NCBI GenBank assembly: GCA_963929915.1
Contig: CAWVJY010000008.1
Coordinates: 226,705 to 290,704 of the forward strand
Origin: Bacillota bacterium
Lineage (GTDB): Bacteria > Bacillota > Clostridia > TANB77 > CAG-508
Reading direction: 5' to 3'
DNA: 64,000 nucleotides
Shown one piece after another: positions 8,783 to 42,907 of this stretch. Each line of letters opens with the position of its first letter. The first letter of the stretch is position 1. The notes under the pieces were generated by a model that worked only from the letters and a program-made list of their open reading frames with translations, had not been told where the DNA came from and did not search any database. The position numbers and the translations under genes are program-made.

Positions 8783-8827
8783 AATGATTAGTTATAAAAA
8801 ATAAAATTGCTGAAAGGTAGTAATTAT

Positions 8828-10262
8828 ATGCAAAATAAAAACATAAAAACAGTTGCTTTTTACACATTAGGTTGTAAAGTAAATCAATACGAAACAAATG
8901 CAATGATGCAAAAATTAAAAGAAGTAGGATTCGAAATAGTAGATTTTGAACGAAAAGCAGATATCTATATTATTAATACTTGTACTGTAACTAACATGGC
9001 AGATAAAAAATCTAGGCAAATGTTAAGAAGAGTAAAAGAAGTATCACCAAATTCTATTTTAGTTGCAGTAGGTTGTTATGCACAAGTGGCAAAACAAGAA
9101 TTAGAAAAAATACCAGAAATAGATTTAATATTAGGAATTAATGAAAAAAATGATATTGTGTGGTATGTAGAAAAAGCAATACAAGAAAAGACGAGCAAAA
9201 AAGAGAAAAAAATTGAAAGAGAAAAAGAAAATGAAACAAATAAAATAACTAGCAAAAAAAGCATAGATAACAAGGATTCTAGCTCTAGTCAGAAAAGTAA
9301 AATTGATATTGTAAATGTTTCCAATGTAGCAAACCAAAAAGAGTTTCTAGACTTTGGAAATGTTACCTACACAGAAAAAACAAGAGCAGTCATCAAAGTA
9401 CAAGATGGGTGTAACCAGTTCTGTTCCTATTGCATTATACCTTATGCCAGAGGTCGTATTAGAAGTAGAGAGCCACAAAGTGTTATTCAAGAAATTACTG
9501 CAATTAGCAAACAAGGTATTAAAGAAGTAGTTATTACTGGAATTCACTTAGCCTCTTATGGAAAAGATTTTGACCGGAGAACGACAAGAATATAGATTAA
9601 TTGATTTATTAGAAGAAATCCAAAAAATAGATGGAATTGAAAGAATTCGTTTGGGTTCCTTAGAGCCTACGTTAATTACAGAAGAATTTGTAACAAGACT
9701 TTCCAAACTTTCTAAAATCTGTGACCATTTTCATTTATCTTTACAAAGTGGATGTAATGAAACATTAAAAAGAATGAATCGAAAATATACTACTGAAATT
9801 TTTGAAAAAGGAGTAGAGATTTTAAGAAACACATATCCAAATGTACACTTAACAACAGATATTATTGTAGGCTTTCCAGGAGAAACAGAAGAAGAGTTTC
9901 AAACAACTTATGAATTCCTAAAGAAAATACAGTTCTATAAAATGCATGTTTTTAAATATTCTCCAAGAAAAGGAACAGTAGCTGCAAAAATGCCAAACCA
10001 AATAGATGGCAATAAAAAAGAAGAAAGAAGCAATTTACTAATAGAACTTTCAAACAAAAATGAACTTGCCTATAACCAAGAATATTTAGGCAAAATAGTA
10101 GAGGTTTTGTTGGAAGATAGAGAAGGTAAATACATAAAAGGTCATACCACAAATTACATGGTAGTAAAAGTACAAACAGAACAAGAACTAGAAAATACCA
10201 TACAAAATATAAAAATTACAGGTTTGGATGGAGTAGAACTAGTTGGAAGAATTGAATTATAA
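8828..10262 (+). pseudogene. mtaB: MtaB-type tRNA methylthiotransferase, reading frame broken near 9560-9595 (may be an indel error)
   Basis: N-terminal MTTase domain (TLGCKVNQYE), radical SAM CNQFCSYC, and the C-terminal TRAM part continue in a second frame (9558..10262). An unusual ~70-aa Lys/Ser-rich insertion (KEKKIEREKENETNK...SSSSQKSKID) sits between the N-domain and the radical SAM core. Confidence 0.7.
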
Positions 10263-10449
10263 TAAGAAAAATCAGTAAACAAATTAGCTGGAAAAAATAT
10301 GCTATAAATATTGAAAAACAACCATAAAAATGATATGATAACAATACAGTGAAAACAGAAAGGAGAATTTGCTCTAGATACTTAAAAATTACTTGGTATC
10401 AAAAACAAAAAGAAGAAGTATAAAAAAGTCTAGTACAAATAAAATAACA

Positions 10450-12207
10450 ATGAAAGCAATTGAAATTAGAAATACCTATTTAAAATTTTTTGAAAAACAT
10501 GGACACAAAATTATTCCAAGTGCACCATTAATACCAGAAAACGACCCATCTGTATTATTCACCACAGCAGGTATGCAACCTTTAGTACCATACCTTTTAG
10601 GGGAAACTCATCCAGAAGGAAAACGTCTTACAGACTATCAAAAATGTTTAAGAACCAATGATATTGATGAAGTTGGAGATAATAGACATTTAACCTATTT
10701 TGAAATGTTAGGAAATTGGTCTTTAGGAGATTATTTTAAAGAAGAAGCAATAACTATGAGTTATGAGCTATTAACCAAAGAATTTGGCATTGACCCTAAC
10801 AAATTATCTGTAACCTGTTTTGCAGGTGATGAAGATGCACCAAGAGATGAGGTGGCAGCAAATGCTTGGAAAAAAGCAGGAATTCCAGAAGAAAGAATTT
10901 ATTTTTATGGTAAAGATGATAACTGGTGGATAGCAGGAGAAGAAGGACCTTGTGGTCCAGATACAGAAATGTATTTAGATACAGGTAAGCCTGCTTGTGG
11001 ACCAGATTGCCAGCCTTCTTGTAGCTGTGGAAAGTATGTAGAAATTTGGAATAATGTATTTATGGAATATTATAAATCCAAAGATGGGTCTATTTCTAAA
11101 TTAAAACAACAAAATGTAGATACTGGTCTTGGACTAGAAAGAATGACAATGCTTTTGCAAGGAAAAGAAACTCCATTTGATACAGAAATATTTTTACCAA
11201 TTATGGAAAAATTAAAAGAACTTGCAAAACAAGATTCTATAGAAAGTAGAAGAATTGTAGCAGAACACTTACGTGCAAGTATTATGGTTATTGCAGATGG
11301 CGGAAAACCAAGCAATATAGACCGTGGTTATGTATTAAGAAAACTAATTAGAAGAATGACAAGACATTTAAATAAATTACAAATAAATTTAGAGGAACTA
11401 GGAAACTTAATTGATTTATACATAGATACTTTGCAAGAGCTATATCCAGAATTACAATCTAAAAAAGACATGATTAAGCAAACTATTATAGAAGAAAAAA
11501 ACAAATTTATGAAGACTTTATCTCATGGAGAAAAGGAATTTGAAAAAGTAGTAGCTAAAGCAAAACAAGAGAATAAAACCATGATAGATGGGTATACTAT
11601 TTTCAAATTATATGAAACTTATGGTTTCCCTCCAGAAATTACAACAGATTTAGCAAAAGAGCAAGGATTTACTGTAGATTTATCTGAATTTGATAAACTA
11701 TTTAAAGAACATCAAGAAAAATCTAGACAAGGTAGTGAATTAAAATTCAAAGGAGGACTTGCAGAACAAAATGAGCAAACAATAGCTTACCATACTGCAA
11801 CCCACCTTTTACATAAAGCTTTACAAATTGTATTAGGAGATCATGCAAAACAATGTGGTTCTAATATTACTACAGAAAGATTAAGATTTGACTTTACTCA
11901 TCCAGAAAAAATGACAAAAGAACAATTACAACAAGTAGAAAATTTGGTAAATGAACAAATTAAACGTGACTTGCCAGTAACTTGTGAAGAAATGACTTTA
12001 GAAGAAGCAAAAGCATCTGGTGCAACAGGTTTATTTGAAAATAAATATGGAGAAAAAGTAAAGGTATATACAATTGGAGATTTTAGTAAAGAAATTTGTG
12101 GTGGACCTCATGTTACCCATACAGGAGAGTTAGGACATTTTAAAATAAAAAAAGAAGAATCTAGTTCAGCAGGAGTAAGGAGAATTAAGGCTATTTTAGA
12201 AAAATAG
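10450..12207 (+). CDS. alaS: alanine--tRNA ligase, short form lacking the C-Ala domain
   Basis: MKAIEIRNTYLKFFEKHGHKIIPSAPLIP...FTTAGM class II core. Editing-domain HxxxH/CxxxH (TATHLLHKALQIVLGDHAKQCGS) lies at the C-terminus. Only ~586 aa, versus about 870 aa for typical bacterial AlaRS. Confidence 0.85.
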   Translation: MKAIEIRNTYLKFFEKHGHKIIPSAPLIPENDPSVLFTTAGMQPLVPYLLGETHPEGKRLTDYQKCLRTNDIDEVGDNRHLTYFEMLGNWSLGDYFKEEAITMSYELLTKEFGIDPNKLSVTCFAGDEDAPRDEVAANAWKKAGIPEERIYFYGKDDNWWIAGEEGPCGPDTEMYLDTGKPACGPDCQPSCSCGKYVEIWNNVFMEYYKSKDGSISKLKQQNVDTGLGLERMTMLLQGKETPFDTEIFLPIMEKLKELAKQDSIESRRIVAEHLRASIMVIADGGKPSNIDRGYVLRKLIRRMTRHLNKLQINLEELGNLIDLYIDTLQELYPELQSKKDMIKQTIIEEKNKFMKTLSHGEKEFEKVVAKAKQENKTMIDGYTIFKLYETYGFPPEITTDLAKEQGFTVDLSEFDKLFKEHQEKSRQGSELKFKGGLAEQNEQTIAYHTATHLLHKALQIVLGDHAKQCGSNITTERLRFDFTHPEKMTKEQLQQVENLVNEQIKRDLPVTCEEMTLEEAKASGATGLFENKYGEKVKVYTIGDFSKEICGGPHVTHTGELGHFKIKKEESSSAGVRRIKAILEK

Positions 12208-13691: not shown

Positions 13692-13766
13692 TGGGCTGTA
13701 GCCAAGCGGTAAGGCACTAGACTTTGACTCTAGCATGCGGTAGTTCGAATCTACCCAGCCCAACCA
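13692..13766 (+). tRNA. tRNA-Gln (TTG)
   Basis: Acceptor TGGGCTG/CAGCCCA is perfectly paired. Anticodon stem CTAGA/TCTAG with loop CTTTGAC. T-arm GGTAG-TTCGAAT-CTACC. Discriminator A plus encoded CCA. Confidence 0.9.
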
Positions 13767-19888: not shown

Positions 19889-19960
19889 AATATTACAATT
19901 ATATTACAAATATATTACAATAATATTAAATTATGATTACAAACACAAAAACTATTGACA
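19889..19960 (+). promoter_or_regulatory. phased ATTACAA repeat module plus TTGACA, upstream of sepF-divIVA
   Basis: AATATTACAATTATATTACAAATATATTACAATAATATTAAATTATGATTACAAACA then TTGACA. ATTACAA recurs at ~11-bp phasing. A 26-nt block is identical to the one at 37975-38030. Confidence 0.45.
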
Positions 19961-20029
19961 AGAAGACTAAAAAGTTAGATACTATTTACAGTTAAACGAA
20001 TGATAAATTCGAATTAGGAGGTTGTTTAA

Positions 20030-20515
20030 ATGGCAGGAGCTATTATGGAAAAAGTATGGGGATTATTTGGAATGGACCCAGCTGAAGATAAAGAAGAAGA
20101 AGAGGTAGAAAACTACGATCAAGAAGAGGAAGAAGCTACCGAAGAAGAGGATCAAGAACAAGAAACAAGAAGACCTTGGGGAAGAAAAAATAGCAAAGTA
20201 GTTAGTATGCCACAAGTTCAACAAGTAAAAATGGTTATTTCTCAACCAACAAACTTTGAACAAGCTGCTAATATTTGCGATTTATTAAAACAAAAGAAAT
20301 CCGTAATTGTTAATTTAGAATATGTAAATAAAGATGTTGCAAGAAGAATTATAGATGTAGTATCTGGAGCAGTACATGCTTTAGATGGTCATATGCAAAA
20401 AATTTCTAATTCTATTGTATTAATTGCACCATTTAATTATGATATTGAAAACGAAATGGCTAGAGATGAAATTAAAAATAAATTATCCGTTTCATGGCTA
20501 AGAAATAATAACTAA
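20030..20515 (+). CDS. sepF: cell division protein SepF
   Basis: Acidic Glu-rich N-region and conserved C-domain SVIVNLEYVNKDVARRIIDVVSGAVHALDGHMQKISNSIVLIAP. Confidence 0.8.
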   Translation: MAGAIMEKVWGLFGMDPAEDKEEEEVENYDQEEEEATEEEDQEQETRRPWGRKNSKVVSMPQVQQVKMVISQPTNFEQAANICDLLKQKKSVIVNLEYVNKDVARRIIDVVSGAVHALDGHMQKISNSIVLIAPFNYDIENEMARDEIKNKLSVSWLRNNN

Positions 20516-20582: not shown

Positions 20583-21032
20583 ATGCTAACCCCTTTAGAT
20601 ATTGAGAACAAAAAATTTTCAAAACAAATGATGAATGGATATAGTGTAGAAGAAGTAGACGACTTTCTAGATGAATTAACAGCAGACTACGAAAAAATAT
20701 ATAAAGAAGTTGCAGAAGCAAAAAATAAAATAGAAGATTTACAAGAAAGTATGGAAAAATATAAAAATATCGAAGGAACTTTACAAAATACTTTGGTAAT
20801 GGCACAATCTGCAGCAGATGAGGTAAAAAGGCTTGCAAAACAACAAGCTGAGCAAATGATTAATGAAGCACAAGCAACTGCCAAACAAGCTGTTACAGAA
20901 TTAGAACAAGAATTAACTTTAAAGAAAAAAGAAATGGAAGAAGTACAAAAACAATTTGATGTTTACAAAGCAAAAATGGAATCTCTTTTAATTTCACAAT
21001 TAGAGTTATTAAAAGATGTGAATAAGGACTAA
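20583..21032 (+). CDS. divIVA: DivIVA
   Basis: MLTPLDIENKKFSKQMMNGYSVEEVDDFLDEL N-terminal lipid-binding domain plus coiled coil. Confidence 0.85.
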   Translation: MLTPLDIENKKFSKQMMNGYSVEEVDDFLDELTADYEKIYKEVAEAKNKIEDLQESMEKYKNIEGTLQNTLVMAQSAADEVKRLAKQQAEQMINEAQATAKQAVTELEQELTLKKKEMEEVQKQFDVYKAKMESLLISQLELLKDVNKD

Positions 21033-21091: not shown

Positions 21092-21272
21092 ATTCAAAGT
21101 AAATATATTACAACGTTTGACCTTGGTGTCGCAATTTCCTATATTGTGCAAGAAAATCTACGATTTTCTGCACATACTAGCATGAAAATTGCTCCAATTC
21201 GCACTTCGTGGCACAGCCACTCCGTTTGGTCGCTTACGCGGTCTACACTTTTGTAATATATTTACTTTGAAT
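21092..21272. repeat. 181-bp palindromic intergenic element with 21-bp terminal inverted repeats and a GC-rich core related to the ERIC-like elements
   Basis: ATTCAAAGTAAATATATTACA ... TGTAATATATTTACTTTGAAT. The core (...CGTGGCACAGCCACTCCGTTTGGTCGCTTACGCGG) resembles the core of the 37836 and 53645 elements (...CGAACAGCTGTCACAATGGTCGCCCACGCAAGG). GC is much higher than the surroundings. Confidence 0.5.
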
Positions 21273-21338: not shown

Positions 21339-21420
21339 CAACTAGAAAAATATTACAATTATTTAACATTATTACAATTGCATTAAGAAAATATTACAAT
21401 TGTGTTAAAAATATTGACAT
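21339..21420 (+). promoter_or_regulatory. second ATTACAA repeat module plus TTGACA, upstream of rsmD
   Basis: AATATTACAATTATTTAACATTATTACAATTGCATTAAGAAAATATTACAATTGTGTTAAAAATATTGACA. Confidence 0.4.
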
Positions 21421-21464
21421 ATTAGCTAAAAACTATAAAATAGAAGTATATCATAAGAGGTACT

Positions 21465-22025
21465 ATGAGAGTAATTAGTGGAACAGCAAGAGGAACAAAA
21501 TTAAATTCAATTCAAGAATTGTCTACAAGGCCAACATTAGATAGAGTAAAAGAATCTTTATTTAACATTTTACAACCTAATATCCAAGAAGATTCTGTTA
21601 TTTTAGATTTGTTTTCAGGAAGTGGAGCTATTGCAATTGAATTTTTAAGTAGAGGTGCCGAAAAAGCCTATTTTTGTGAAAAAAATCAGTTGGCAGTAAA
21701 AATGATATACTCCAATTTAGAAAAAACAAAGCTAACAGAAAAAGCAGTTATTATTAAAAAAGACTATAAAAAAGCTTTAGAAATTTTACAGCAGGAAAAG
21801 GTAAAATTGGATTTTGTTTATATCGATCCACCTTATGAAGCGAATATTGCAGTTGATGCTGCAGAAAGAATTTTGTCACTAAATTTACTAAATGAAAAAG
21901 GAAACCTAATCATAGAAACCGATGATGAGAAACGAGAATTACTCGAATTGAAAGAATTAAATGTAGATGTTTATGATATAAGAAAATATGGAAGAGTGAG
22001 TCTTATATTCTTAAGAAAAAAGTAG
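21465..22025 (+). CDS. rsmD: 16S rRNA (guanine966-N2)-methyltransferase
   Basis: DLFSGSGAIAIE ... IDPPY motifs. Confidence 0.85.
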   Translation: MRVISGTARGTKLNSIQELSTRPTLDRVKESLFNILQPNIQEDSVILDLFSGSGAIAIEFLSRGAEKAYFCEKNQLAVKMIYSNLEKTKLTEKAVIIKKDYKKALEILQQEKVKLDFVYIDPPYEANIAVDAAERILSLNLLNEKGNLIIETDDEKRELLELKELNVDVYDIRKYGRVSLIFLRKK

Positions 22026-22060
22026 AATTCCTACTTTTTAGGTTGAAAGGGGTTAAAGCA

Positions 22061-22498
22061 ATGGAAATATTCACCTTATTAGAAACATTAGAAGATATGT
22101 TAGAAAAAAGCAGAAATGTACCTTTTTCTGGTAAATGTGTTGTAGATAAAGAAGAAATTTTAGATATTATTAAAGAAATTAGATTAAAACTACCAGAAGA
22201 GCTAAAACAAGCAAAATGGGTAAAAGAAGAAAGACAAAGAATTTTAGTGGAAGCTCAAAATGAGGCAGATGAAATTATTAAAGAAGCAGAAAATAGAATT
22301 ATTTCTATGATTGATGAACACGAAATTACAAGAAAGGCCTATGAAAAGAAAGTAGAAATTATAGAAACAGCAAATGAAATGTCTCGCGAAATTTCAAAAG
22401 GAACCAAAGATTATGCAGATAGTGTTCTAGCTGGAATTGAAGTTGCACTTCAAGATGCATTAAAAGTAATTCAAGATAATAGAAAAGAACTTAAATAG
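22061..22498 (+). CDS. hypothetical coiled-coil protein
   Basis: ORF with RBS AAAGGGG. Highly charged helical sequence, no assignable family. Confidence 0.4.
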   Translation: MEIFTLLETLEDMLEKSRNVPFSGKCVVDKEEILDIIKEIRLKLPEELKQAKWVKEERQRILVEAQNEADEIIKEAENRIISMIDEHEITRKAYEKKVEIIETANEMSREISKGTKDYADSVLAGIEVALQDALKVIQDNRKELK

Positions 22499-22509
22499 AG
22501 TGTTTTTTC

Positions 22510-22545
22510 GGAAGTCAGATATCGGAAGTTTCCGATTTCTGACTT
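22510..22545 (+). terminator. nested hairpin terminator
   Basis: GAAGTCAGA...ATCGGAAGTTTCCGAT...TCTGACTT followed by TTTTTTT. Confidence 0.6.
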
Positions 22546-22581
22546 TTTTTAAAGAAGTTCTTGGACAAAGGAGGGGCTAGT

Positions 22582-25008
22582 TTGGCAAAAAGACGAGCAA
22601 AAAGAAGTAAAAACAAAGTAGATATTAATGTAGCGGTAGTAGTACTAGTATTACTTGCTATCTTATTAATGATATTAATTTATACAAAATCCGGAAGTAT
22701 TGGCGCTACCTTAAGCCCAATGCTTGGTGGTATTATGGGATTTATTAAATATGTGATTCCTATCGGTTTATTATTAATTGCCATTTATATGACTCATAAT
22801 GATAAAGAATATTTAATTCATAAATTAATTCAATATGGAATTTTTTTGGTCTGCATAGCAGCAATGCTTACGATTTTTCAAGTAGGCAATGGAAATCTTA
22901 CTATAGAAGATAGAGATTTTACGCAAATTATAGAAGACAGTTATTATTTGGGAGAAAAAGATATTGGTGGAGGAATCGTTGGCGCTTGTGTTGCTGTTCC
23001 ATTAATTAGTGCATTAGGAGAAGTAGGAGCTATTATTTTAACAATTGGAGTTTCCATTATTCTTCTTGTATTTATGTTCGGAATTCGCCCAGCAGAAATG
23101 ATAAGCAATTTCTTAGATCATTTAGAAGAAAGAAAAGAAGAACGAAGAGAAGAAAAATTGCAAAGACAAAATGATAAAAAACGAAATAAAGAAGAATTAC
23201 CGGCAAATGCAAAAGAAACAAGATGGCAAAGACGTTTAAGAGAAAAAGAAGAAGCAGAAAAATTAGCTTCACAAATTGAAAATCAATTAACCATTAATTT
23301 AGATGATGAAGAAGATAAAAAATCTGCTAAAAAATATGATCATAGTAAAGACGAACTAGACATACCATTTTTTGGTGGACTAGGAAAGAAAAAAGAAAAG
23401 GAAGAAGAAAAACAGCAACAACAAGAAACATCCCCAGATGTTATTGAAGCAAATTTATTTAAACAAGTAGAAGAACAAAAAGAAGATAAGGTAAAAGAAG
23501 TTTTACAATTAGAGCATACCATTACTGCTGAAGATGAAAATTATGAATTTCCTCCTGTTCAGCTTTTAAGTGAGCCAGAGAAAAAAGGAAATAAAGCAAG
23601 TAAAAAAATGGTAACAGATACAGCAACCAAATTACAAAAAACATTATATAGTTTTGGCGTTTCTGCCAAAGTAGAAAATGTATCTGTAGGCCCTGCTATT
23701 ACTAGATATGAGCTAAAACCAGCAGAGGGGGTTCGTGTTAGCAAAATTGCAAATTTAGCAGATGATATTGCTTTAAATTTAGCAGCAGAAACCATTCGTA
23801 TTGAGGCTCCAATTCCAGGTAAACAAGCAGTAGGAATTGAAATTCCAAACAAAGAAAATGAAGTTGTTCATTTTAGAGAAATGATAGAATCAGATGTTTT
23901 CCAAAATCATAAGTCTAAACTTGCTTTTGGGTTAGGAAAAGATGTAGCAGGGGATCCAGTAGTAACAGATATTGCAAAAATGCCCCATGTATTAATTGCA
24001 GGTGCAACAGGTTCTGGAAAAAGTGTATGTATCAATACTCTTATTGCTAGTATTATTTATAAAGCAAAGCCAAGTGAAGTAAAATTATTAATGATAGACC
24101 CAAAAGTTGTAGAACTTTCTGTATATAATGGTATACCACATTTATTAATTCCAGTAGTAACAGATCCAAAAAAAGCAGCAGGTGCATTGGCATGGGCTGT
24201 GCAAGAAATGGAAAATCGTTATCAATTATTTGCTACAAAAGGGGTAAGAGATATTAAAGGATATAATGAAGTGGCAAAACAAGAAGAATCAGGAAATTTA
24301 CCACAAATCGTTATTATTATTGATGAGCTTGCAGATTTAATGATGGTAGCTTCCAAAGATGTAGAAGATTCTATTTGCCGTTTAGCACAAAAAGCAAGAG
24401 CTGCTGGAATGCATTTAGTAATTGCAACACAAAGACCTTCTGTTGATGTTATTACAGGAATTATTAAAGCCAATATTCCATCTAGAATTTCTTTTGCAGT
24501 TTCTTCACAAGTAGACTCTAGAACCATTTTGGATATGGTAGGAGCAGAAAAATTGCTTGGTAAAGGTGACATGTTATTCTATCCATCAGGCGCACCAAAG
24601 CCTACTAGGGTGCAAGGAGCATTTATTTCTGATAAAGAAGTAGAAAAAATAGTAGACTTTATTAAAGCAAATGGCGAAGTGGTATATAATGAAGATATTA
24701 TAGAACAAATTGAAAATGCCAACAAAACAGATAAAGAACTAGAAACAGAAGGCGGACCAGATGATGATGGAACAGATCCATTATTAATGGAAGCAATTGA
24801 TACTGTGGTAGAAACAAGGCAAGCCTCTACTTCTTTTATTCAAAGAAGATTTAAAGTAGGATATGCTAGAGCTGGAAGAATTATAGACCAAATGGAAGAA
24901 AGAGGAATTATCTCTGGTTACCAAGGTAGTAAACCTCGTGAAGTATTAATGCCAAAAGAAAGATGGCAAGAGCTTAAAATGGCACCTATGGACCAAACAG
25001 AAGAATAG
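22582..25008 (+). CDS. ftsK: DNA translocase FtsK/SpoIIIE
   Basis: N-terminal TM helices, charged linker, motor domain (HVLIAGATGSGKS, IIIDELADLMM), C-terminal gamma domain. Start set to the TTG at 22582, preceded by RBS AAAGGAGGGG. Confidence 0.9.
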   Translation: MAKRRAKRSKNKVDINVAVVVLVLLAILLMILIYTKSGSIGATLSPMLGGIMGFIKYVIPIGLLLIAIYMTHNDKEYLIHKLIQYGIFLVCIAAMLTIFQVGNGNLTIEDRDFTQIIEDSYYLGEKDIGGGIVGACVAVPLISALGEVGAIILTIGVSIILLVFMFGIRPAEMISNFLDHLEERKEERREEKLQRQNDKKRNKEELPANAKETRWQRRLREKEEAEKLASQIENQLTINLDDEEDKKSAKKYDHSKDELDIPFFGGLGKKKEKEEEKQQQQETSPDVIEANLFKQVEEQKEDKVKEVLQLEHTITAEDENYEFPPVQLLSEPEKKGNKASKKMVTDTATKLQKTLYSFGVSAKVENVSVGPAITRYELKPAEGVRVSKIANLADDIALNLAAETIRIEAPIPGKQAVGIEIPNKENEVVHFREMIESDVFQNHKSKLAFGLGKDVAGDPVVTDIAKMPHVLIAGATGSGKSVCINTLIASIIYKAKPSEVKLLMIDPKVVELSVYNGIPHLLIPVVTDPKKAAGALAWAVQEMENRYQLFATKGVRDIKGYNEVAKQEESGNLPQIVIIIDELADLMMVASKDVEDSICRLAQKARAAGMHLVIATQRPSVDVITGIIKANIPSRISFAVSSQVDSRTILDMVGAEKLLGKGDMLFYPSGAPKPTRVQGAFISDKEVEKIVDFIKANGEVVYNEDIIEQIENANKTDKELETEGGPDDDGTDPLLMEAIDTVVETRQASTSFIQRRFKVGYARAGRIIDQMEERGIISGYQGSKPREVLMPKERWQELKMAPMDQTEE

Positions 25009-25138: not shown

Positions 25139-26692
25139 ATGGATAAAAAGGAAAAAATACTTAAAAAGCTTCATATAACAGATTATACAAATCGCTTAGA
25201 GAAGGTTTTGGAAAAAAAGAAATTTTCTTTCGATACCAAAAATCTTCTTTTAAGCATGTTCTATAAAATAGAAAATGGATATCAAGATTATCAAAAAACA
25301 AAAGTACAAGTAGAAAATAAAGAAGATTTTTTTGAAAAAATACTCCAAATCATTGATAAAAAATGTGAAGAAATTATTACCACCAAAGATGTTTTAGTAG
25401 ATGAAAAAAAGCAAAAAGTAGATTTTATGGTAGATAAAGAAAAAGGAAAAATCGTAGCTTTAGGAAATGAATTTGTTTTATTAAACGCTATTTTAGTACT
25501 AGGAGAAAAAGAAATTTGTTTTCCAGAAGAAGAAAAGCTTTTACAAACACCATTTACAGCCTTTTTTAATTTAGGACTAAGAATGCATGAAACAGAAGTA
25601 ATTCGAGATTTTAATGGCTGGTCATGGGATATTGTTACAAAAGATATTACCAATATTCCTGTAAATCTTATCTTCCAAAGTTTTCTATATTTACTAGGGC
25701 AAGATTTTATGGCTCAATGGATAAATAATAAGAGTGAATTAGCAGATTATTTTATGTTAGCTGCTGAGAACATGAAACAAAACTTTGGAGAAGAAAGAAG
25801 TAAAAAAATAGTATCTCTATTTTGTAAATTAGTGATAGAGATTGTGGCAGAACAGGATGAAACACAAGCAACTTTATGGAAAAAGTTAAAAAAGGAAAAT
25901 AAAATAGAATTAGAAAAATTAAGTAATAAGCCAAAATTTCTAGAAGAAATTACCAAAGAAAAAAAGGAAATCACCAAAAAAATTGAAAAAATTGATAAAA
26001 TCATGAATAATAAGATTCTTTTACAACAGGAGTATGAAGAAAGAAATGAAAAATTACCTAATAAAGAGAAGATTTTTAGTATTAGGCATTTAACCAATCG
26101 TTTAGTAGAAGAAAGACAAGAACTAGTTGAGAAAATGAAACAAAGCAACAATTTAATTGATCCAAAAGAATATGTTGCTCGTAAGGAAAAAGTAGAAAAA
26201 AGGGTAGAGTTTTTAGATAGTTTAGATTTAGAAAATAAAACAGATAGAAGAGAAGCGTTATTACAACTATGTATACTATTCTTAGAATGTTTTGAAATCA
26301 AAACCATTAAAGCACAAAAAAAGGAAGAAGTCATTCATTATTTTTACGAATTAAGATATTATCGCTTTTTACCTTTTGAAGAAGAAGTGAAACTAAAAGA
26401 AATAGAAAAATTAAATCATATTTTTGAAAAAGAAATATCATTATTAATAGAAAAAGCACAAAAAATGGCAATTATTGATGAAGTTACGGCAGATAAAGAA
26501 ATTAATCAAAAAATCATTGGAAACTTATTTAATAGTAAATTAATTGATTTAAATCATTTAATTATTGAAACAAAAGTAGAAGAAGGCAAATTATATGCAG
26601 AATATTATGATACTAATATTTTAGAAAATGTTGTAGAAGTACAAAGCAATAGAACGGTGAAACTAAAGAAAAAGACAAAATTGTTTCTTTAG
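25139..26692 (+). CDS. hypothetical Lys/Glu-rich coiled-coil protein
   Basis: ORF with RBS AAAAGGTGG. The stop codon abuts REP copy A. Confidence 0.4.
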   Translation: MDKKEKILKKLHITDYTNRLEKVLEKKKFSFDTKNLLLSMFYKIENGYQDYQKTKVQVENKEDFFEKILQIIDKKCEEIITTKDVLVDEKKQKVDFMVDKEKGKIVALGNEFVLLNAILVLGEKEICFPEEEKLLQTPFTAFFNLGLRMHETEVIRDFNGWSWDIVTKDITNIPVNLIFQSFLYLLGQDFMAQWINNKSELADYFMLAAENMKQNFGEERSKKIVSLFCKLVIEIVAEQDETQATLWKKLKKENKIELEKLSNKPKFLEEITKEKKEITKKIEKIDKIMNNKILLQQEYEERNEKLPNKEKIFSIRHLTNRLVEERQELVEKMKQSNNLIDPKEYVARKEKVEKRVEFLDSLDLENKTDRREALLQLCILFLECFEIKTIKAQKKEEVIHYFYELRYYRFLPFEEEVKLKEIEKLNHIFEKEISLLIEKAQKMAIIDEVTADKEINQKIIGNLFNSKLIDLNHLIIETKVEEGKLYAEYYDTNILENVVEVQSNRTVKLKKKTKLFL

Positions 26693-26733
26693 GGACGGTT
26701 CTCAGTGGCCCCATTTGGGGTCACTTGGGACAC
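26692..26733 (+). repeat. REP element copy A
   Basis: GGGACGGTTCTCAGTGGCCCCATTTGGGGTCACTTGGGACAC, with internal hairpin GGCCCC-ATTT-GGGGTC. Confidence 0.8.
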
Positions 26734-26836
26734 TTCATTAAAAAGAGAAAGATTAAAAATTATTACTATTAACCAAAGACCAAAATATAAAATATAATAC
26801 AAATTATAATTTTTTAGGAGAGGATTGAAATTAAAT

Positions 26837-28605: not shown

Positions 28606-30585
28606 ATGAAAAATAAATATTATAATAATGCTATTATTGGGGGAAAAAACATTACAGCAAGTTATAGTAAAACAGGAGAATTGTTAAGGGTTATGTATCC
28701 AAATCCAGATTTTAGAAGTTGGATAGATGAATTTTTAACTGGTGTTAAAATTAATGATTCTGGAATGATTTATTTACATGAAGATTGCAATAATCAATAT
28801 CATCAATATTATACTGAAAATACCAATATTTTAAAAACTGAAATTTTAAATACCTATTTTCAATTACAAATTAAGCAAACCGATTTTGCCTTACTAAAAA
28901 ATAGCATATTGGTAAAAAAGTATGAATTTGAAAACAAAAATAATATTGATTTAAAAGTAAATTTTTTAGTACATAGTAAACTCTTATCAGATACCAATAA
29001 TATGGTAGGAAGTGAAGTAAAATATAATACACTAATTCAATATTGCCACGACTATTGTCTTTACCTTTTTTCACCATCTTCTTTATTAAGTTATCAATTA
29101 AATGATACTAAAGAAAATATTGGAAGTGGAGAAATTTATGATAAAGACTATATAGGTATGTCTTGTGATTCTAGTATTAGTTATGATATTGGAATTCTAA
29201 AACCAGGAGAAAAGAAAGAATTAGTGCTTTATTTGTATTTTAAAAATAATACGACAGCAGATATAGGAACAGAAAAAATAAGTAGTAAACAATTAGAAGA
29301 ACAGTTACTAAAAGAAATAGCCGAAATAAAAAAGATAGATGTACAAAAAGAAGAACAAGATGTAGAAAAATACTGGAAAAAATATGTAAAAGAACATTTA
29401 ACCATTCCTTTAAAACCAGAAACAAATACTTTTCATAAAAAATGGAACCAAATTTATCAAAGAAGCATTTTATTATTTCCTTTATTAATCAACCAAGAAA
29501 CAGGGGGAATTAGTGCAACTGTAGAAGTTGATGAAAATATGACACAATGTGGAAGATATGCCTATTGCTGGCCAAGAGATGCAGTATGGATTACCAAAGC
29601 ATTAGATTTGCTAAAAATGACAAAGGAAACGGAAAAATTTTATAAAATCTTCTGCAAAGAAACCCAAAGTAAAAATGGAATGTGGGAACAAAGATTTTAT
29701 ACAGATGGAAAATTAGCACCTTGTTGGGGATATCAAATTGATGAAACAGCCAGTGTTATTTATGGAGTTTATGAACATTATAAGGTAGTAAAAGATGCTA
29801 AATTTTTAAAAGACACTTATAAAATGTGTGAAAATGCTGCAAAGTTTTTAGGAATTTATTTAGATAATGTGTTAGGCACAAAAGATGAATCAGATGTGGT
29901 AAAAAAAGAAATAGAAGAAACTTACCATACAGAGGGAAGAAATAAATTGCCAGTTAGTTATGATTTATGGGAAATGCATGAAGGAGTACATTTATATTCC
30001 TTATCTGCTATTTATGCAGCCTTTGAAGCAATGAAACAAATTCATATTGTTTTAAAACCAAGTTATGAACAAAATAATCGACTAAAAGTAGAAGCAATGA
30101 ACAAACTAGAAGCCAAAATGATAAAATATCAGGAAGAAATTAAAAAGTATATACTTGCCAACTTATATGACGAAAACACTAAAACTTTTTCTAGAAACTT
30201 AAATGATAATCGTACAGATATTAGTGAACTTGGAATGATAGTACCATTTGCTTTGTTTTCTGCAAAAGAAAAAAAGGTACAAAATACTATTGAAAAAATC
30301 AATATGACATTAAGAACTTATACAGGAGGATACTTAAGATTCGAGCAAGATCATTACCGTGGTGGAACAAGTCCATGGCCAATAGCTACTTTATGGATGG
30401 CAATGTACTATCAGAAGGCTGGAGAAAGAAAAAAAGCAAAAGAATGTATCGAATTTGTTGTAAATTCTGCCAATGAACACGGCTTACTAGGTGAGCAAGT
30501 AGACAACCAAACTATGCAGCCGAATTGGGCAATTGGCTTACGGATGGGCCCATGCTATGTTTGTTTTGGGGACGGTTCTCACTGA
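28606..30585 (+). CDS. glycoside hydrolase family 15-like protein (glucoamylase/glucodextranase fold)
   Basis: CWPRDAVW and DLWEM acid/base-region motifs of GH15. The last 6 codons and the stop lie inside REP copy B. Confidence 0.6.
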   Translation: MKNKYYNNAIIGGKNITASYSKTGELLRVMYPNPDFRSWIDEFLTGVKINDSGMIYLHEDCNNQYHQYYTENTNILKTEILNTYFQLQIKQTDFALLKNSILVKKYEFENKNNIDLKVNFLVHSKLLSDTNNMVGSEVKYNTLIQYCHDYCLYLFSPSSLLSYQLNDTKENIGSGEIYDKDYIGMSCDSSISYDIGILKPGEKKELVLYLYFKNNTTADIGTEKISSKQLEEQLLKEIAEIKKIDVQKEEQDVEKYWKKYVKEHLTIPLKPETNTFHKKWNQIYQRSILLFPLLINQETGGISATVEVDENMTQCGRYAYCWPRDAVWITKALDLLKMTKETEKFYKIFCKETQSKNGMWEQRFYTDGKLAPCWGYQIDETASVIYGVYEHYKVVKDAKFLKDTYKMCENAAKFLGIYLDNVLGTKDESDVVKKEIEETYHTEGRNKLPVSYDLWEMHEGVHLYSLSAIYAAFEAMKQIHIVLKPSYEQNNRLKVEAMNKLEAKMIKYQEEIKKYILANLYDENTKTFSRNLNDNRTDISELGMIVPFALFSAKEKKVQNTIEKINMTLRTYTGGYLRFEQDHYRGGTSPWPIATLWMAMYYQKAGERKKAKECIEFVVNSANEHGLLGEQVDNQTMQPNWAIGLRMGPCYVCFGDGSH

Positions 30586-30610
30586 CCCCTAATGGGGCCA
30601 CTTGGGACAC
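30568..30610 (+). repeat. REP element copy B
   Basis: GGGGACGGTTCTCACTGACCCCTAATGGGGCCACTTGGGACAC. Confidence 0.8.
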
Positions 30611-30753
30611 ATCATATCATCTGAATTAACTCAAATGAAAAAAGAATCATAAATAATTTTAACAAGTACTTGCAAAATTATAAAAAATATGAGAAGATGT
30701 AAAAGAGAGAGAATTATAAAAAAGAGGGGCACTATCGGAGAAAGGAGGCAATT

Positions 30754-31197
30754 ATGCCTAGAAAACCAAGAGATAGGAGTCCCTCTAATTGTTACCATAT
30801 CATTACCAGAGGAATTAATAAGCAAGATATTTTCTTTGATAACAATGATAAGGCCAAACTTCTTAAAGAAATAAGTAGAACAAAAGAAAAATATGAATAT
30901 GAATTATATGCTTATGTTCTAATGCCAAATCATATTCATTTACTAATTAAAGAAAATACTCATTCGATTTCTGAAATTATGAGAAGTCTTTTGATAAGTT
31001 ATGCTGAATATATTAACAAGAAATATGATAGGATTGGATATGTCTTTCAGAATCGATTTACTAGTAGACCAGTTGAAAACGATATTTATTTTAGAAATGT
31101 GGTACGTTATATTCATTTAAACCCACAAAAAGCCGGAATTTCTATATATAGTCAATATAAATGGAGTCAGTTACCAAGATTATTGCAAAGACAATAA
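30754..31197 (+). CDS. REP-associated tyrosine transposase (RAYT; IS200/IS605-like Y1 HUH enzyme)
   Basis: YHIITRG ... LYAYVLMPNHIHLLI (HuH) ... RYIHLNP (catalytic Tyr region). Flanked by inverted REP copies B(+) and C(-). Confidence 0.85.
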   Translation: MPRKPRDRSPSNCYHIITRGINKQDIFFDNNDKAKLLKEISRTKEKYEYELYAYVLMPNHIHLLIKENTHSISEIMRSLLISYAEYINKKYDRIGYVFQNRFTSRPVENDIYFRNVVRYIHLNPQKAGISIYSQYKWSQLPRLLQRQ

Positions 31198-31571: not shown

Positions 31572-31598
31572 TTTGAATAGATTGGAGGAAATGGAGAA

Positions 31599-31641
31599 GT
31601 GTCCCAACTGACCCCTTTTGGGGTCACTGAGAACCGTCCCC
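31599..31641 (-). repeat. REP element copy C (inverted orientation)
   Basis: GTGTCCCAACTGACCCCTTTTGGGGTCACTGAGAACCGTCCCC is the rc of the copy A/B consensus. Ends 7 nt before the radA ATG. Confidence 0.8.
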
Positions 31642-31648
31642 AGAAAAC

Positions 31649-33062: not shown

Positions 33063-33071
33063 AACCGTCCC
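33030..33071 (-). repeat. REP element copy D (inverted orientation)
   Basis: GTGTCCCAAGTGGCCCCATTTGGGGCTACATAGAACCGTCCC. Confidence 0.8.
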
Positions 33072-33087
33072 TAGAAAGGAAAATGTG

Positions 33088-37780: not shown

Positions 37781-37835
37781 ACATAAGTTTTTATTTTTAC
37801 ATGCATAATATGATTCTAAAATTTATTTTATAAAA

Positions 37836-37974: not shown

Positions 37975-38030
37975 ATATTTAATACTTTATTACAATTATA
38001 TTACAAATATATTAAATTTATATTACAAAC
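37975..38030 (+). promoter_or_regulatory. third ATTACAA repeat module, upstream of the Tad-like cluster
   Basis: TTATTACAATTATATTACAAATATATTAAATTTATATTACAAACAAAG. Shares the 26-nt block ATTACAATTATATTACAAATATATTA with the sepF upstream module. Confidence 0.45.
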
Positions 38031-38114
38031 AAAGAACTTATTGTTTTTAGACGAAAAATGTTGTACAATAAATTAAATGATGATATTTTGTAAATTTATA
38101 AGGAGGAACAAGCA

Positions 38115-39065
38115 ATGGCAAAGAACCCAATGCAAAGAAAAGCTCAAAATTCATTTCTTTTAGGAATGTTAATCACATTATTAATAACAGGAATTATTAT
38201 TGCTGTTTTAGTAATACAACTTACTAAAATAACAAGAGAACAAAATGAGGCAAAAGCAAATTTAAAACAGGTTTATGTATTAACACAAGATGTTAATTCA
38301 GGAGATACTGTTACTACCGATATATTAACATTACAAGCAATGGACGCAAGTACTATTCCATCCAATGCACTAAGTTTAGCAGAACTAACTGCTAAAAGCG
38401 ATATTGTAGACGAAAATGGTAATCTTATTCAAAAAATGAATGTTGTTAGTAAAATAGATTTGAAACAAGGAACAATTATTACTTCTGATATGATTGCAGT
38501 ACAAGATGAATTAGCAGCAGATTTAAGAAAAGTAGAATATAATATGATTGTTCTTCCAACACAGTTACAAGATGGCAAATATATTGATATTCGTTTAAAA
38601 TTACCAACAGGAGAGGATTTTATTGTAATTTCCCATAAACAAGTAGAAATTCCTACTGTTGAAGGAATAGATTCTTTAAATAGTATTTGGTTAAACTTAG
38701 ATGAAACAGAAATTTTAACTTTAAGTTGTGCTATTGTAGAATCTTATCAAATTCAAGGTTCTCTACTATATATAACTGAATATGTGGAACCAGGCTTACA
38801 AGAAGCAGCTACTGCAACTTATTTACCAAACGATTCAACTATTAATTTAATTAACCGTGATCCTAACTGTGTAGCAGAAGCTAAAAATGCATTATTTGAA
38901 AGAAATAATAATCAGAGCACTAAAAATTCAGTTAGAAATCCTGTTAATAATAATTTAAATAATAATGCAGAAGATGCAATTGATAATGTTATTGACAATG
39001 TAGAAGAAGAAATTAGAAAAACGCAAGAAGAAAGACAAACTTATTTAGAGTCGTTAGGTGGATAA
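38115..39065 (+). CDS. CpaB/RcpC-like Flp-pilus assembly protein (N-terminal TM plus SAF-like domain)
   Basis: N-terminal TM, then VYVLTQDVNSGDTVTTDILTLQAMDASTIPSNAL SAF/beta-clip pattern. First gene of a Tad-like cluster. Confidence 0.5.
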   Translation: MAKNPMQRKAQNSFLLGMLITLLITGIIIAVLVIQLTKITREQNEAKANLKQVYVLTQDVNSGDTVTTDILTLQAMDASTIPSNALSLAELTAKSDIVDENGNLIQKMNVVSKIDLKQGTIITSDMIAVQDELAADLRKVEYNMIVLPTQLQDGKYIDIRLKLPTGEDFIVISHKQVEIPTVEGIDSLNSIWLNLDETEILTLSCAIVESYQIQGSLLYITEYVEPGLQEAATATYLPNDSTINLINRDPNCVAEAKNALFERNNNQSTKNSVRNPVNNNLNNNAEDAIDNVIDNVEEEIRKTQEERQTYLESLGG

Positions 39066-39135
39066 TAGAAAAGTAAAAATATGATAATTTAGAAAATTAA
39101 TCTTAAAAAATAGAAAAAAGTAATAGGAGGAAAGC

Positions 39136-39837
39136 ATGAAAACGGTAGGATTTATAGGGGCATATGATAAAACAGATTTGATTGTTTATATAGCAAGAAT
39201 TCTAGTGGTATTAGGAAAAAAAGTTTTGGTAATAGATGCTACTACTTTACAAAAAGCAAAATATATAGTACCTGCTATTTCTCCTGCTAAATCCTATATT
39301 ACTGATTTTGAAGGTATTGATATTGCAGCAGGATTATATAATTTTACCTCAATTAAAGAATATTTAGGGATGCCTTTACATGCAGCTTTTGAATATGATT
39401 ATATTTTTATTGATGCAGATTCATCAGAAGTGATTGAAAGTTTTAATTTACAAACTGCAAACCAAAATTATTTTGTAACGGCTTTTGATGCTTATTCTTT
39501 AAAAAGAGGATTAGAAATTTTATCTGGAATAGCAGAACCAATGAAACTAAAAAAAATACTATTTTCCAAAAATTGTACTGTAGAAGAAGATGAATATCTA
39601 AATTATTTATCATTAGGCTATAAAATTATATGGGATGAAGAAAAAATTTATTTTCCATTTGAATCAGGAGACCAAACAGTTATTATGGAAAATCAAAGAG
39701 TCGCCAAAATTAAATTGAAAAAGTTATCAGAACTCTATAAAACTAGCTTGATGTATGTTGCAGAAGAATTATTAGATAATGAAAAAGAAAGTGCAAATTT
39801 AAAAAAGGCATTTAAACAATTAGAAAAAGGGGTATAA
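39136..39837 (+). CDS. ParA/MinD-fold protein with degenerate Walker A (TadZ/CpaE-like pseudo-ATPase)
   Basis: GFIGAYDKTDL occupies the P-loop position instead of KGGxGK[ST]. Confidence 0.45.
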   Translation: MKTVGFIGAYDKTDLIVYIARILVVLGKKVLVIDATTLQKAKYIVPAISPAKSYITDFEGIDIAAGLYNFTSIKEYLGMPLHAAFEYDYIFIDADSSEVIESFNLQTANQNYFVTAFDAYSLKRGLEILSGIAEPMKLKKILFSKNCTVEEDEYLNYLSLGYKIIWDEEKIYFPFESGDQTVIMENQRVAKIKLKKLSELYKTSLMYVAEELLDNEKESANLKKAFKQLEKGV

Positions 39838-39842
39838 AGTTC

Positions 39843-40688
39843 ATGGCAATAATTACATTTTGTAGTAATGAAACTAAAGAAACAGGACAAACCTTATCTT
39901 TAGCGGCAATTGCTTCTTTTATGGCAATTGAGCATAATTATAAAATTCTAGTAGTATCCACAAATTTTAATGATTTGAGCTTAGAAAATTGCTTTTGGGA
40001 ATATAACAAAATAAGGCCATCTGGAGCAATTAAAATAGATGGACAAAAAAATGTGGGGCTAGAATCTGGAATAGAAGGATTAATTAAAGTCTTAAATAGT
40101 AATAGAACTAGTACTGAAATTGTAAAAAACTATTCTAGAATTGTATTAAGAGATAGATTAGACGTTTTTTTATCACCTATTACAAAATCTTATCAAGAAT
40201 ATACACAAATTACACCATATTATACAAACATTCTTCAAATTGCTAATAGGTATTATGACTTGATATTTGTAGACTTAAGCAAAAAAATGCCTAAACAAGA
40301 TGCAAATGACATTTTACAATTATCTGATATTGTTGTGGTAAACCTTACTCAAAGATTAAAAACAATAAATGATTTTATGCAATTAAGAGAATCTAACGAA
40401 TTTTATCAAAGAAAAAATGTAATGCTTGCTATAGGAAGATTTGATAAATTTTCTAAATATAATAGCAAAAATATTACTAGATATTTAAAAGAAAAGAAAT
40501 TAATTTCTGTAATTCCTTATAATACATTATTTTTTGAAGCTTGCTCAGAAGGAACCATTATTGACTTTTTACTAAAAGTAAAGAACATTACAGATGAAAC
40601 AGACCGTAATAGTAGTTTTATAAAAGAAATTCAAGCAATAGATAATAGTATTATTTTTAAATTACAGGAACTACAAATGAAAATGTAA
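39843..40688 (+). CDS. second ParA/MinD-fold protein with degenerate Walker A
   Basis: ITFCSNETKETGQT in the P-loop position. Start 4 nt after the previous gene. Confidence 0.45.
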   Translation: MAIITFCSNETKETGQTLSLAAIASFMAIEHNYKILVVSTNFNDLSLENCFWEYNKIRPSGAIKIDGQKNVGLESGIEGLIKVLNSNRTSTEIVKNYSRIVLRDRLDVFLSPITKSYQEYTQITPYYTNILQIANRYYDLIFVDLSKKMPKQDANDILQLSDIVVVNLTQRLKTINDFMQLRESNEFYQRKNVMLAIGRFDKFSKYNSKNITRYLKEKKLISVIPYNTLFFEACSEGTIIDFLLKVKNITDETDRNSSFIKEIQAIDNSIIFKLQELQMKM

Positions 40689-40715
40689 TCCTATTAGAAA
40701 GGAGACTTTAAAAAG

Positions 40716-42699
40716 ATGCTTAATATACTTTTAATTGTAATTGTGCTTTTATTAGCAGGTTTTCTTGTTTTTCGTTTTGTAAAGAAAAGACAAAATGAAA
40801 AAGTAGAAGAACAAATAGAAGTAGATGACAAAACTTATACACTAGAGATGATGAAAAACTTCGTAAAGAAAAGACTTGATGAAATTACCAAAATCAACCT
40901 TTATGATATTGGTCTTTCAGAAGAAGAATTAAAAAGAAGAAAGCAAAAAAAGTATGAGTTAAAAAAAGCATTAAAAGGTTGTACCTATGGAGATGTTAAT
41001 GATAAAAAATATGTTAAAGAACTCATTTATGACTTACTTTATCGTGAATATGGTGTTAATGAAACTAATGTATCAAAAGCTATACCATTTGATATTCCAT
41101 CCCTTTTAACAGCACAAGATAAATTTGACATTATTCTTTATATGTATAAAAATGAATTTGGATATGAAGCATTGCCAGAAATTATTAAAAAATATAACTT
41201 AGACGAATTAAAATATGTATCTGGTGAGGCGAAGCCTTGTTATGTAATTACCTCAGAAGAAATTGAAAAAATTTATGAAAAAGAAAACTTTGCTCTTACT
41301 TTTACTGATAAATTAAATGTAGTAGTACAAAGAATTTATCAACATTATAAAGGATATAGCAGTATTGATGAAATTAGAGATATGAACATAGATGGTATTT
41401 CAGGAGGTGTATCTGGACTTCCAGAATCTTTCTTAAGTCAAGTAGCACAAACCGATGGAGATTATTTAGACCAAATTGTAGAACATAAAGTTCCTCGTGC
41501 TTGTGATAGTATTTGGATTATGTTCCATGGTAAATCTATACGTTTAGCGTTTCTATCTTTTGGAACAGAAGCAGAACTAAAAAGAGTATGTCAAAATATT
41601 TATAAATATAATAACCCAGGTCAATTATCAGACACCAATGGTTATAAAATTAATGAAATGAAAGATGGTTCACGTGTTGTTGTAGTTAGACCTAGTATGT
41701 CAGAAACTTGGGCATTTTTCGTAAGAAAATTCGACGTTAAACGTGCAACTCTAGAACAAATTGTACTTTTTGATGGAAAAGAAGAAGCAATTGACCTATT
41801 AAAATATTTAGTAAAAGGTGCTAGAATTATTTCACTAACTGGTGAACAAGGATGCCGGAAAAACCACAATGCTTATGGCAATGATTGAAAACATATATGA
41901 AACTATGAACCTTCGTATTACAGAAACTGCATTCGAGCTTCACTTAAGAAAAATATATCCAACTAGAAACATCTTATCTATGAGAGAAACAGAAACTGTT
42001 TCTGGACAAGACTGTTTGGACGTTCAGAAAAAGACAGATGGTTCTGTTAATATTATTGGTGAGGTTGCAACAGACCCTGTAGCATCTTGGATGATTCAAT
42101 CTGCACAGGTTGCTTCTAAATTTACTTTATTTACTCACCACGCAAAAACTTTTCCAGACTTAGTAACTGCACTTCGTAACTCTATGCTTCGTGCAGGTGT
42201 ATTTAAAGATGAAAGAACAGCAGAAGAACAAGTAGTGCAAGTATTAAACTTTGACATTCACTTAGTAAAAGACTTTAGGGGTAGAAGATACATAGAAAGA
42301 ATTACGGAATGTATTCCTGTAGAAGATAAAAATGAATATACTTTTGACCATAGAAAACAAAAAACTTTAGAAGGTAAAATGGATAAATTTATGGATAATG
42401 CTACCATATTCTTTACCAAATCTACCAATAGAGAATTATACAAATATAGAAATATATTAGAATATCAAGACGGAAAATATGTACTTACAAATCCAATTTC
42501 AGAAACCAATATTCGCGAAATGAGAAACAACATGGATGATAGTGACTTAGACGGTTTTAATGATTTCTTACAAAGAAACTGGGGAATTGCACCAAAAAGA
42601 ATGGAAGACTATGAAACAAAAACAGCTACCGTTAGTGCAGAACCTAGCCTAGAAGGAGCTCCTAGAAAAAGAGGAAGAAAACCAAAAGCACAAGTTTAA
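40716..42699 (+). pseudogene. VirB11/CpaF(TadA)-family secretion ATPase with N-terminal TM helix; one-base frameshift inside the Walker A (may be an indel error)
   Basis: Frames 40716-41888 and 41842-42699. Joining them gives LTGEQGAGKTTMLMAMIE (Walker A), ITETAFEL, GEVATDP and THHAKT boxes. One extra T in GGA-T-GCCGGAAAAACC breaks the frame. N-terminus MLNILLIVIVLLLAGFLVF is hydrophobic. Confidence 0.65.
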
Positions 42700-42762
42700 A
42701 ATTAAAAAATAATAAAAATTTAAAGATTTAAAAATAAAAATTAAAGAATTAAAACAAAGAAT

Positions 42763-42862
42763 AGCAGAAGGAAATAAAATAGAACAGAACAGAACAGGAT
42801 AAAATAAGACAGAATAGAATAGAACAGAAGAAACAGAGATAAAAAATACAAGTTAGAATACA
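42763..42862 (+). repeat. imperfect AAYAG pentanucleotide tandem repeat in a ~200-bp purine-rich intergenic tract
   Basis: AATAGAACAGAACAGAACAGGATAAAATAAGACAGAATAGAATAGAACAGAAGAAACAGAG. The strand is almost free of T. Confidence 0.5.
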
Positions 42863-42907
42863 AAAGAAAAAATTAGCAAAACAGAAAACGAGGTGAAATT
42901 TTAAGAT

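Follow-up and report, generated by a model that had tools for sequence, protein, structure and literature searches.

Winged-helix response regulators of the OmpR/PhoB family bind as head-to-tail dimers to direct repeats. In the Pho boxes of PhoB and PhoP, which belong to this family, several such repeats are phased at 11 bp, lie upstream of the -35 element or replace it, and are bound by tandem dimers. For WalR (also named YycF or VicR), autolysins represent the classical target class. The WalR box has the consensus TGTWAH-N5-TGTWAH (methods section of the C. difficile WalRK study, PMC9210968), and WalR sites in Bacillota are characterized by a hexamer core, a 5-nt spacer (11-bp period), direct repetition and a position close to the promoter. 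A link to cell division exists in B. subtilis, where WalR has been reported as an activator of ftsA/ftsZ and WalK was found at the division site (PMC5717166). In S. aureus, it is the position of the WalR site and not its orientation that sets the outcome, and sites located 5' of the -35 element are associated with activation (PMC10746227). Lastly, MtrA, an essential OmpR-family protein of mycobacteria, recognizes direct repeats with an 11-bp period and controls a regulon that includes sepF and wag31, the divIVA homolog, as well as cell-wall genes (PMC6265350).

The window, i.e. the whole 64-kb stretch of DNA that was analysed, contains three arrays that share the hexamer core, spacer, direct repetition, promoter-proximal position and division link of the WalR sites. 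Each consists of four to six head-to-tail RTTACA hexamers, some of them weakened to ATTAAr, with an 11-bp period; the unit consensus is aATATTACAAa and its core RTTACA is the complement of TGTAAY. The sepF array (19892..19941, + strand) comprises five half-sites in 11-bp register, namely ATTACA at 19892, 19903 and 19914, ATTAAA at 19925 and ATTACA at 19936. In the rsmD array (21352..21409, + strand), a distal pair (ATTACA at 21352, TTAACA at 21363) is followed by four proximal half-sites in which strong and weak hexamers alternate (ATTACA at 21371, ATTAAG at 21382, ATTACA at 21393 and GTTAAA at 21404). The third array (37989..38027, + strand) lies in front of a pilus-like gene cluster and contains ATTACA at 37989 and 38000, ATTAAA at 38011 and ATTACA at 38022. 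All of these ATTACA hexamers extend to ATTACAA, whose starts are spaced by 11 or 22 with a single exception of 19. Since the weakened hexamers occupy the intervening positions of the 22-nt gaps, the recurrence of ATTACAA at ~11-bp spacing that had been noticed in the preliminary description is borne out.

The sepF and cluster modules have the 26-mer ATTACAATTATATTACAAATATATTA in common, which is present in exactly two copies in the window (19892-19917 and 37989-38014), and both modules can be aligned over ~75 nt once one 11-nt unit is dropped from the sepF copy. The preliminary description had recognized this identity over 26 nt correctly, and its coordinates for the two copies, 19893 and 37977, were off by 1 and by 12 (too low), respectively. 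Likewise, the looser version that it had placed at 21339 does exist, with coordinates corrected to those of the rsmD array. For the assessment of specificity, a simple position-weight score per unit was summed over four phased positions and the 64-kb window was scanned. The three arrays reach 38.4, 31.3 and 38.4, and the best phased score among 50 shuffled windows was 27.1. As only the three arrays exceed this shuffled maximum and the next real site scores 17, the motif is not ubiquitous in the AT-rich intergenic DNA of the window. Rfam and tRNA scans returned nothing at the modules, their sole yield in the window being tRNA-His and tRNA-Gln at 13.6 kb.

In all three cases a -35-like hexamer (TTGACA, TTGACA and TTGTTT) follows the array, at 19 to 21 bp from the start of the proximal strong (RTTACA) unit, in line with the early suggestion that each block precedes TTGACA or one other sequence. 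The predicted sigma-A-type promoter of sepF-divIVA (19955..19983, +) reads TTGACA-17-GATACT and its -35 begins 19 bp from where the last half-site starts, and the array extends from approximately -98 to -49 relative to the predicted sepF start. TTGACA and GTTAGATACT are nearly invariant among relatives. The -10 region GTTAGATACTA (19974-19984) is almost unchanging over the sepF loci L126-L205 despite GATACT being a poor -10 hexamer, and an additional signal may be located there. The promoter is followed by sepF (20030-20515, +; Pfam SepF, 1.1e-23) and divIVA (20583-21032, +; Pfam DivIVA, 6.4e-37).

Downstream of the second array, a promoter with 11/12 consensus positions is predicted (TTGACA-16-TAAAAT; 21414..21441, +), followed on the same strand by rsmD (21465-22025; Pfam RsmD-type methyltransferase), an ORF of 151 aa without Pfam match (22043-22498) and a translocase gene of the ftsK/spoIIIE type (22561-25008; Pfam). 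The three genes probably form one operon and the second module would probably drive ftsK too, as the stretch from rsmD to ftsK (21465..25008) has no terminator-like site on the + strand. As such, rsmD had been named correctly as the gene directly downstream, and the label probably understates the target. Just 5' of the rsmD array, a GC-rich stretch (21150-21260; …cgcacttcgtggcacagccactccgtttggtcgcttacgcggtctac…) stands out in the AT-rich intergenic DNA, and part of it is similar by eye to the core of the 173-nt element described below.

The third array precedes a predicted promoter (TTGTTT-17-TACAAT; 38041..38069, +), of which the TGTTGTACAAT stretch is kept in relatives, and a large gene cluster (38115..48843, +) that ends in front of a terminator-like hairpin (48900-48929). 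The encoded proteins include two that are ParA/MinD-like, four small ones that share the N-terminus MENASKALIIAG..., a CpaF-like ATPase that is split, a polytopic protein of 696 aa and a membrane protein whose SAF domain is weak, the ParA-like and pilin-like proteins being assigned by eye. For comparison, Tad/Flp pilus clusters are marked by a CpaF-type ATPase, a CpaB with SAF domain, a TadZ-like ParA, TadB/C membrane proteins and Flp-type pilins. None of the twelve cluster proteins that were scanned matched a Pfam family above cut-off. The SAF match of the first protein is sub-threshold (E = 0.0015), although a 96%-identical protein is named 'SAF domain-containing' by one source, and the split ATPase has a match to CpaF structures of the PDB in its second half (E = 0.05). 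The earlier term 'Tad-like' is hence plausible but weakly supported.

Two further observations concern the cluster itself. Two ORFs that overlap, 40716-41888 and, in frame +1, 41842-42699, encode the putative CpaF-like ATPase, and within 41833-41875 the canonical P-loop GEQGAGKTT requires that the T behind GGA (the single T at 41853) be skipped. The same arrangement is found in four independent assemblies of other species (L206 at about 13700-13735, and at the equivalent positions of L207, L208 and L209); up to this T substitutions are synonymous in frame 0 and beyond it in frame +1, and CGG, a rare codon, comes next in the 0-frame. From these sequences, the gene represents a candidate for programmed +1 frameshifting. 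In addition, the homologous cluster and its array adjoin a Mob_Pre relaxase and small HTH genes in L207 (3237-4235; 10001-20957), which suggests that some lineages may have the cluster on a mobile element. The homologous cluster of L209 lies beside prophage-like genes.

The window also contains repeats of other kinds. Two copies of a 173-nt element (37819-37991 and 53628-53800; 88% identity) were identified, with a GC-rich core and terminal inverted repeats of ~25 bp. The element is MITE-like, has no Rfam match and forms a single long hairpin on folding (-39 kcal/mol, z = -9.5). Its first copy abuts the cluster module; the array is, however, not part of the element, as the second copy ends without one. 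GC-rich palindromic repeats (GGGACGGTTCTCAGTGGCCCC...GGGGTCACTTGGGACAC) are located at gene ends (26688-26743, 30565-30615, 31596-31646 and 33022-33077). They surround an IS200-like Y1 transposase gene (30754-31197) and are possibly REP-like or IS200-associated hairpins.

The conservation of the module was addressed in different ways. A search with the pattern ATTACAANNNNATTACAANNNNATTA, restricted to one genome per species, retrieved at least 120 loci, which mostly belong to gut MAGs of 24-31% GC titled uncultured Clostridia or Clostridium sp. Nearly all of the arrays found by this means lie in non-coding DNA and are oriented toward the downstream gene. Among the matches listed, the first gene 3' of the array belongs to one of a small number of families. 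It encodes SepF at no fewer than 16 loci (≥16) and FtsA (Pfam FtsA) at at least 12-13, and in at least 10-11 species it is an ortholog of the gene that opens the cluster of the window. A PrgI-family protein follows at at least 9 loci, inside a cluster that holds TrbC/VirB2-like pilins and a VirB4/TraG-like ATPase and thus represents a type IV secretion system. At no fewer than 6-7 loci the next gene encodes a PilM-like protein of 538 aa, and at others of those listed a type IV prepilin-like protein. Within the type IV secretion cluster, the array is situated 3' of a VirB2/TrbC-like pilin gene in at least nine species (L035 at 1420-1470, and L019, L032, L061, L063, L067, L118, L122 and L125), and the order at these loci is array, hairpin terminator, promoter and PrgI-family gene.

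For sepF, a test independent of the motif was based on 80 metagenome loci collected by protein similarity (67-95% identity), which yielded 46 distinct upstream regions of 170 nt. A perfect RTTACA-N5-RTTACA in the orientation of the window was present in 40 of the 46 regions and in the opposite orientation in none (0/46); of the remaining regions, three have a reduced array and three resemble broken or rearranged contigs. Base conservation was read with the proximal unit as anchor and the others at -11, -22 and -33. In the two distal units, T2, T3, A4, C5 and A6 are shared by 42-45 of the 46 regions and position 1 is only A or G; the C of the strong units is conserved in 43/46 against a background of 28% GC, and the third unit is held as ATTAAA in 39/46. 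Overall, the unit is conserved over 9-10 of its 11 positions, as ATATTACAAnA. The flanks vary freely, both where the upstream gene ends and in the leader from the -10 to the ribosome-binding site, and the conservation of the array is therefore not simple phylogenetic inertia.

The rsmD array is retained in 33 of 34 distinct regions 5' of rsmD genes whose products are as little as 48% identical, and its layout in relatives reads RTTACA-N5-rTTAAr-N5-RTTACA-N5-gTTAAt-N4-TTGACA. The cluster array was present in all four homologous clusters (4/4) that were found by protein similarity of the first gene (59-72% identity). In ~1 Mb of clade DNA, a sample enriched by construction because its loci were chosen for bearing such sites, 88% of the 303 relaxed-consensus matches fall inside the 16% that is non-coding, nearly all of them before the same gene families. 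Coordinates, scan and conservation together confirm the module as a real, phased and promoter-proximal element. Its recurrence before sepF, rsmD and the first cluster gene in many relatives, and at few promoters only, agrees with the initial proposal of a shared regulon, and a putative regulon that links division genes with the cluster is well supported by this comparative evidence.

Read on the opposite strand, ATTACA-N5-ATTACA becomes TGTAAT-N5-TGTAAT and thereby a perfect match to the WalR box, so that the former statement that the motif matches no textbook consensus was wrong. The A or G at position 1 of the unit corresponds to the degenerate H (T/C) of the box and the invariant ACA to its TGT core; this core is kept in units outside the anchor, whereas the conserved weak units (ATTAAr) break it. 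The uniform head-to-tail orientation at 11 bp is that of OmpR/PhoB-type sites, and the intergenic location close to predicted promoters is that of WalR boxes. TGTWAH-N5-TGTWAH, a low-information pattern in DNA of 28% GC, has four matches in the window compared to 1.7 expected by chance, and all four are located within the three modules.

The same pattern also leads to WalR-associated genes elsewhere. In C. difficile (L040), the pattern search located ATTACAAAAAGATTACAAAAAGATTACA 131 nt before the gene of an exported SH3 and NlpC/P60 protein. This promoter is known as that of the NlpC/P60 hydrolase cd630_27680, for which a double TGTAAT-CTTTT-TGTAAT of the perfect-consensus class has been predicted in 'Reverse' orientation, and the gene was down-regulated on WalR overproduction (PMC9210968 Table S4). 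It shares the triple hexamer and the orientation with our arrays, and all perfect-consensus entries of that table (5/5) are 'Reverse' as in the window. In Sediminibacillus and Lentibacillus, the pattern precedes LysM and NlpC/P60 hydrolases of the LytE/CwlO type. In a Tissierellaceae MAG (L024, 3416-3441), a perfect TGTAAT-N5-TGTAAT lies directly 3' of walK and before the gene that follows in a walR-walK-...-walJ operon, and the same post-walK neighbourhood recurs in Tissierellaceae and related genomes (L048, 1404-1429; L060, 3560-3585), which suggests WalR control of the downstream yycH/I-like genes. Homologs of the Tissierellaceae regulator are named YycF/VicR by their sources, in a search that returned close Tissierellia relatives only, which confirms the regulators of these wal operons as YycF/VicR.

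Other regulators were compared by their consensus sequences. The preliminary description had seen no fit to Spo0A, and this holds, as the box TGTCGAA needs a CG core. CiaR (TTTAAG), ComK (AAAA-N5-TTTT) and MraZ (GTGG-type repeats) do not fit either. The B. subtilis PhoP hexamer TT(A/T/C)ACA (TTHACA) requires a T at position 1, where the arrays have A or G, and unlike for Pho boxes nothing ties the arrays to phosphate genes. MtrA sites resemble the arrays in their direct repeats with an 11-bp period (9 nt + 2 nt) and in overlapping targets; their recognition sequence (c-G-T/A-n-A-C/T-c) is, however, different and MtrA belongs to the Actinobacteria, another phylum, which makes it an analogy and not a case of membership.

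Architecture, specificity, conservation across species and the match to WalR sites are each directly supported, and from them we infer that the arrays are operators of an OmpR-family response regulator, with WalR (YycF/VicR) or a very close paralog as the probable protein, an assignment that we hold with some confidence. The 11-bp spacing would place all half-sites on one face of the helix, and phosphorylated WalR or its close paralog could occupy the array as two adjacent dimers. In the sepF and cluster arrays, these would bind to a strong-strong pair followed by a weak-strong pair, and in the rsmD array to alternating strong-weak pairs. Activation of transcription through contact with RNA polymerase appears to be the most likely outcome, since the sites are located entirely 5' of the -35. 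The direction is, however, uncertain, since a C. difficile promoter of comparable geometry goes down when WalR is overproduced (PMC9210968). In the clade, such a regulon would span sepF-divIVA, rsmD-orf-ftsK, ftsA, the Tad-like cluster, type IV pilus genes and the type IV secretion cluster.

The search for the regulator itself gave a less favourable picture. Pfam assigned no response regulator among ~45 window proteins, and searches of the window and of ~1.2 Mb of clade loci yielded neither walR/walK nor any other response regulator. A tblastn search with a B. subtilis WalR sequence, which served as a probe only, detected wal operons in three non-clade loci and 0 in the clade loci. According to the abstract of the C. 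difficile study, WalRK occurs in all Firmicutes (PMC9210968). The putative presence of WalRK in this lineage is based on that statement and on the weak taxonomic label of one homolog, 'Intestinibacter sp.' (Peptostreptococcaceae, the family of C. difficile). Regarding the targets, no peptidoglycan hydrolase or autolysin gene was seen among the array-bearing genes of the clade (strong arrays and matches listed, ~1 Mb sampled); they include the division genes sepF, divIVA, ftsA and probably ftsK.

As no walRK was found, autolysin targets are missing and the unit is conserved past the WalR hexamer (ATATTACAAnA), a different, clade-specific regulator stays a serious, though in our opinion unlikely, rival. 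It could be an OmpR-family paralog or an unrelated binder of 11-bp repeats that links division genes to clusters for surface filaments and secretion, in which case the match with the WalR box would be coincidental. Another point against WalR is that four to six phased half-sites exceed the usual single WalR dimer site. Further points in favour of the rival are that the third sepF unit is kept as ATTAAA instead of drifting, and that the regulon, among the matches listed, includes three filament or secretion systems. Also, sepF and ftsA have 0 occurrences in the supplementary files of the C. difficile WalR study (PMC9210968). On the other hand, core, spacing and allowed variation agree with the WalR box at every position, the same pattern recovers WalR sites, either accepted or predicted, in three further groups of Firmicutes, and a link between WalR and ftsAZ is known (PMC5717166).

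One could further imagine that no protein other than RNA polymerase is involved and that the phased A/T-rich repeats act as an enhancer, either by bending the DNA or by extending an UP element for the alpha subunit. The 11-bp period, the placement 5' of the -35 and the A-rich spacers (AAAAT) of many relatives are compatible with this possibility, which we nevertheless regard as very improbable. It is the hexamer, including its C in 43/46, and not the A-rich spacer that is most conserved, and the spacers of the window (ATTAT, AATAT, ATAAT) are not A-tracts. An UP element would be an A/T-only tract at approximately -40 to -60 without conserved G/C, and the array differs from it in both respects, reaching to about -98 and thus well past the UP-element zone. 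Moreover, the array occurs at 3 promoters only in 64 kb, and strong housekeeping promoters such as that of groES/EL do not have it. That the arrays are a dispersed repeat, a recently copied promoter cassette or AT-rich chance without regulatory meaning, as the two copies identical over 26 nt and the separate 173-nt inverted-repeat element abutting the cluster copy might suggest, is scarcely credible and already largely refuted by the conservation at sepF, rsmD and the cluster, given that the 26-mer is absent from 100 of 100 dinucleotide-preserving shuffles, that the second copy of the 173-nt element has no array, that arrays with diverged spacers occupy orthologous promoters in dozens of species and that the array of L207 remains with the cluster despite a different genomic context.

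With WalR or its close paralog as the favoured regulator, the element would be of a known kind, a WalR-type or OmpR-family direct-repeat operator, and not an unclassified motif. What is new is its membership, which in an uncultured gut lineage comprises sepF-divIVA, rsmD-ftsK, ftsA and three clusters for filaments or secretion. As such, the data suggest that a WalR-type circuit in this lineage directly controls divisome genes (sepF, ftsA, ftsK) together with pilus and secretion systems, and that autolysins are not its main targets. They also provide a concrete regulon for abundant gut bacteria without a cultured or genetically tractable member, and name a candidate regulator for a large cluster that is beyond annotation by current domain libraries. 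One could speculate that one regulator, be it an essential WalR that has been rewired or a novel protein mimicking the WalR site, jointly switches on the early divisome (sepF, divIVA, ftsA, ftsK) and three machines that span the envelope, namely the Tad-like cluster, the type IV pilus and the type IV secretion system, across a widespread clade of uncultured gut Clostridia, an idea that is possible and in our eyes rather doubtful. If true, the Tad-like apparatus would be built in step with cell division and would not be an accessory adhesin. In any case, the compact and highly conserved array may be used as a genome-wide marker for more members of the regulon.

Lastly, three genes elsewhere in the window show an unusual structure. 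A RadA/Sms-like gene is split into three consecutive ORFs (31649-32896), a MiaB-type radical-SAM gene consists of two overlapping ORFs (8807-10262), and AlaRS (10393-12207) appears short with 604 aa. These are either real disruptions or assembly frameshifts.
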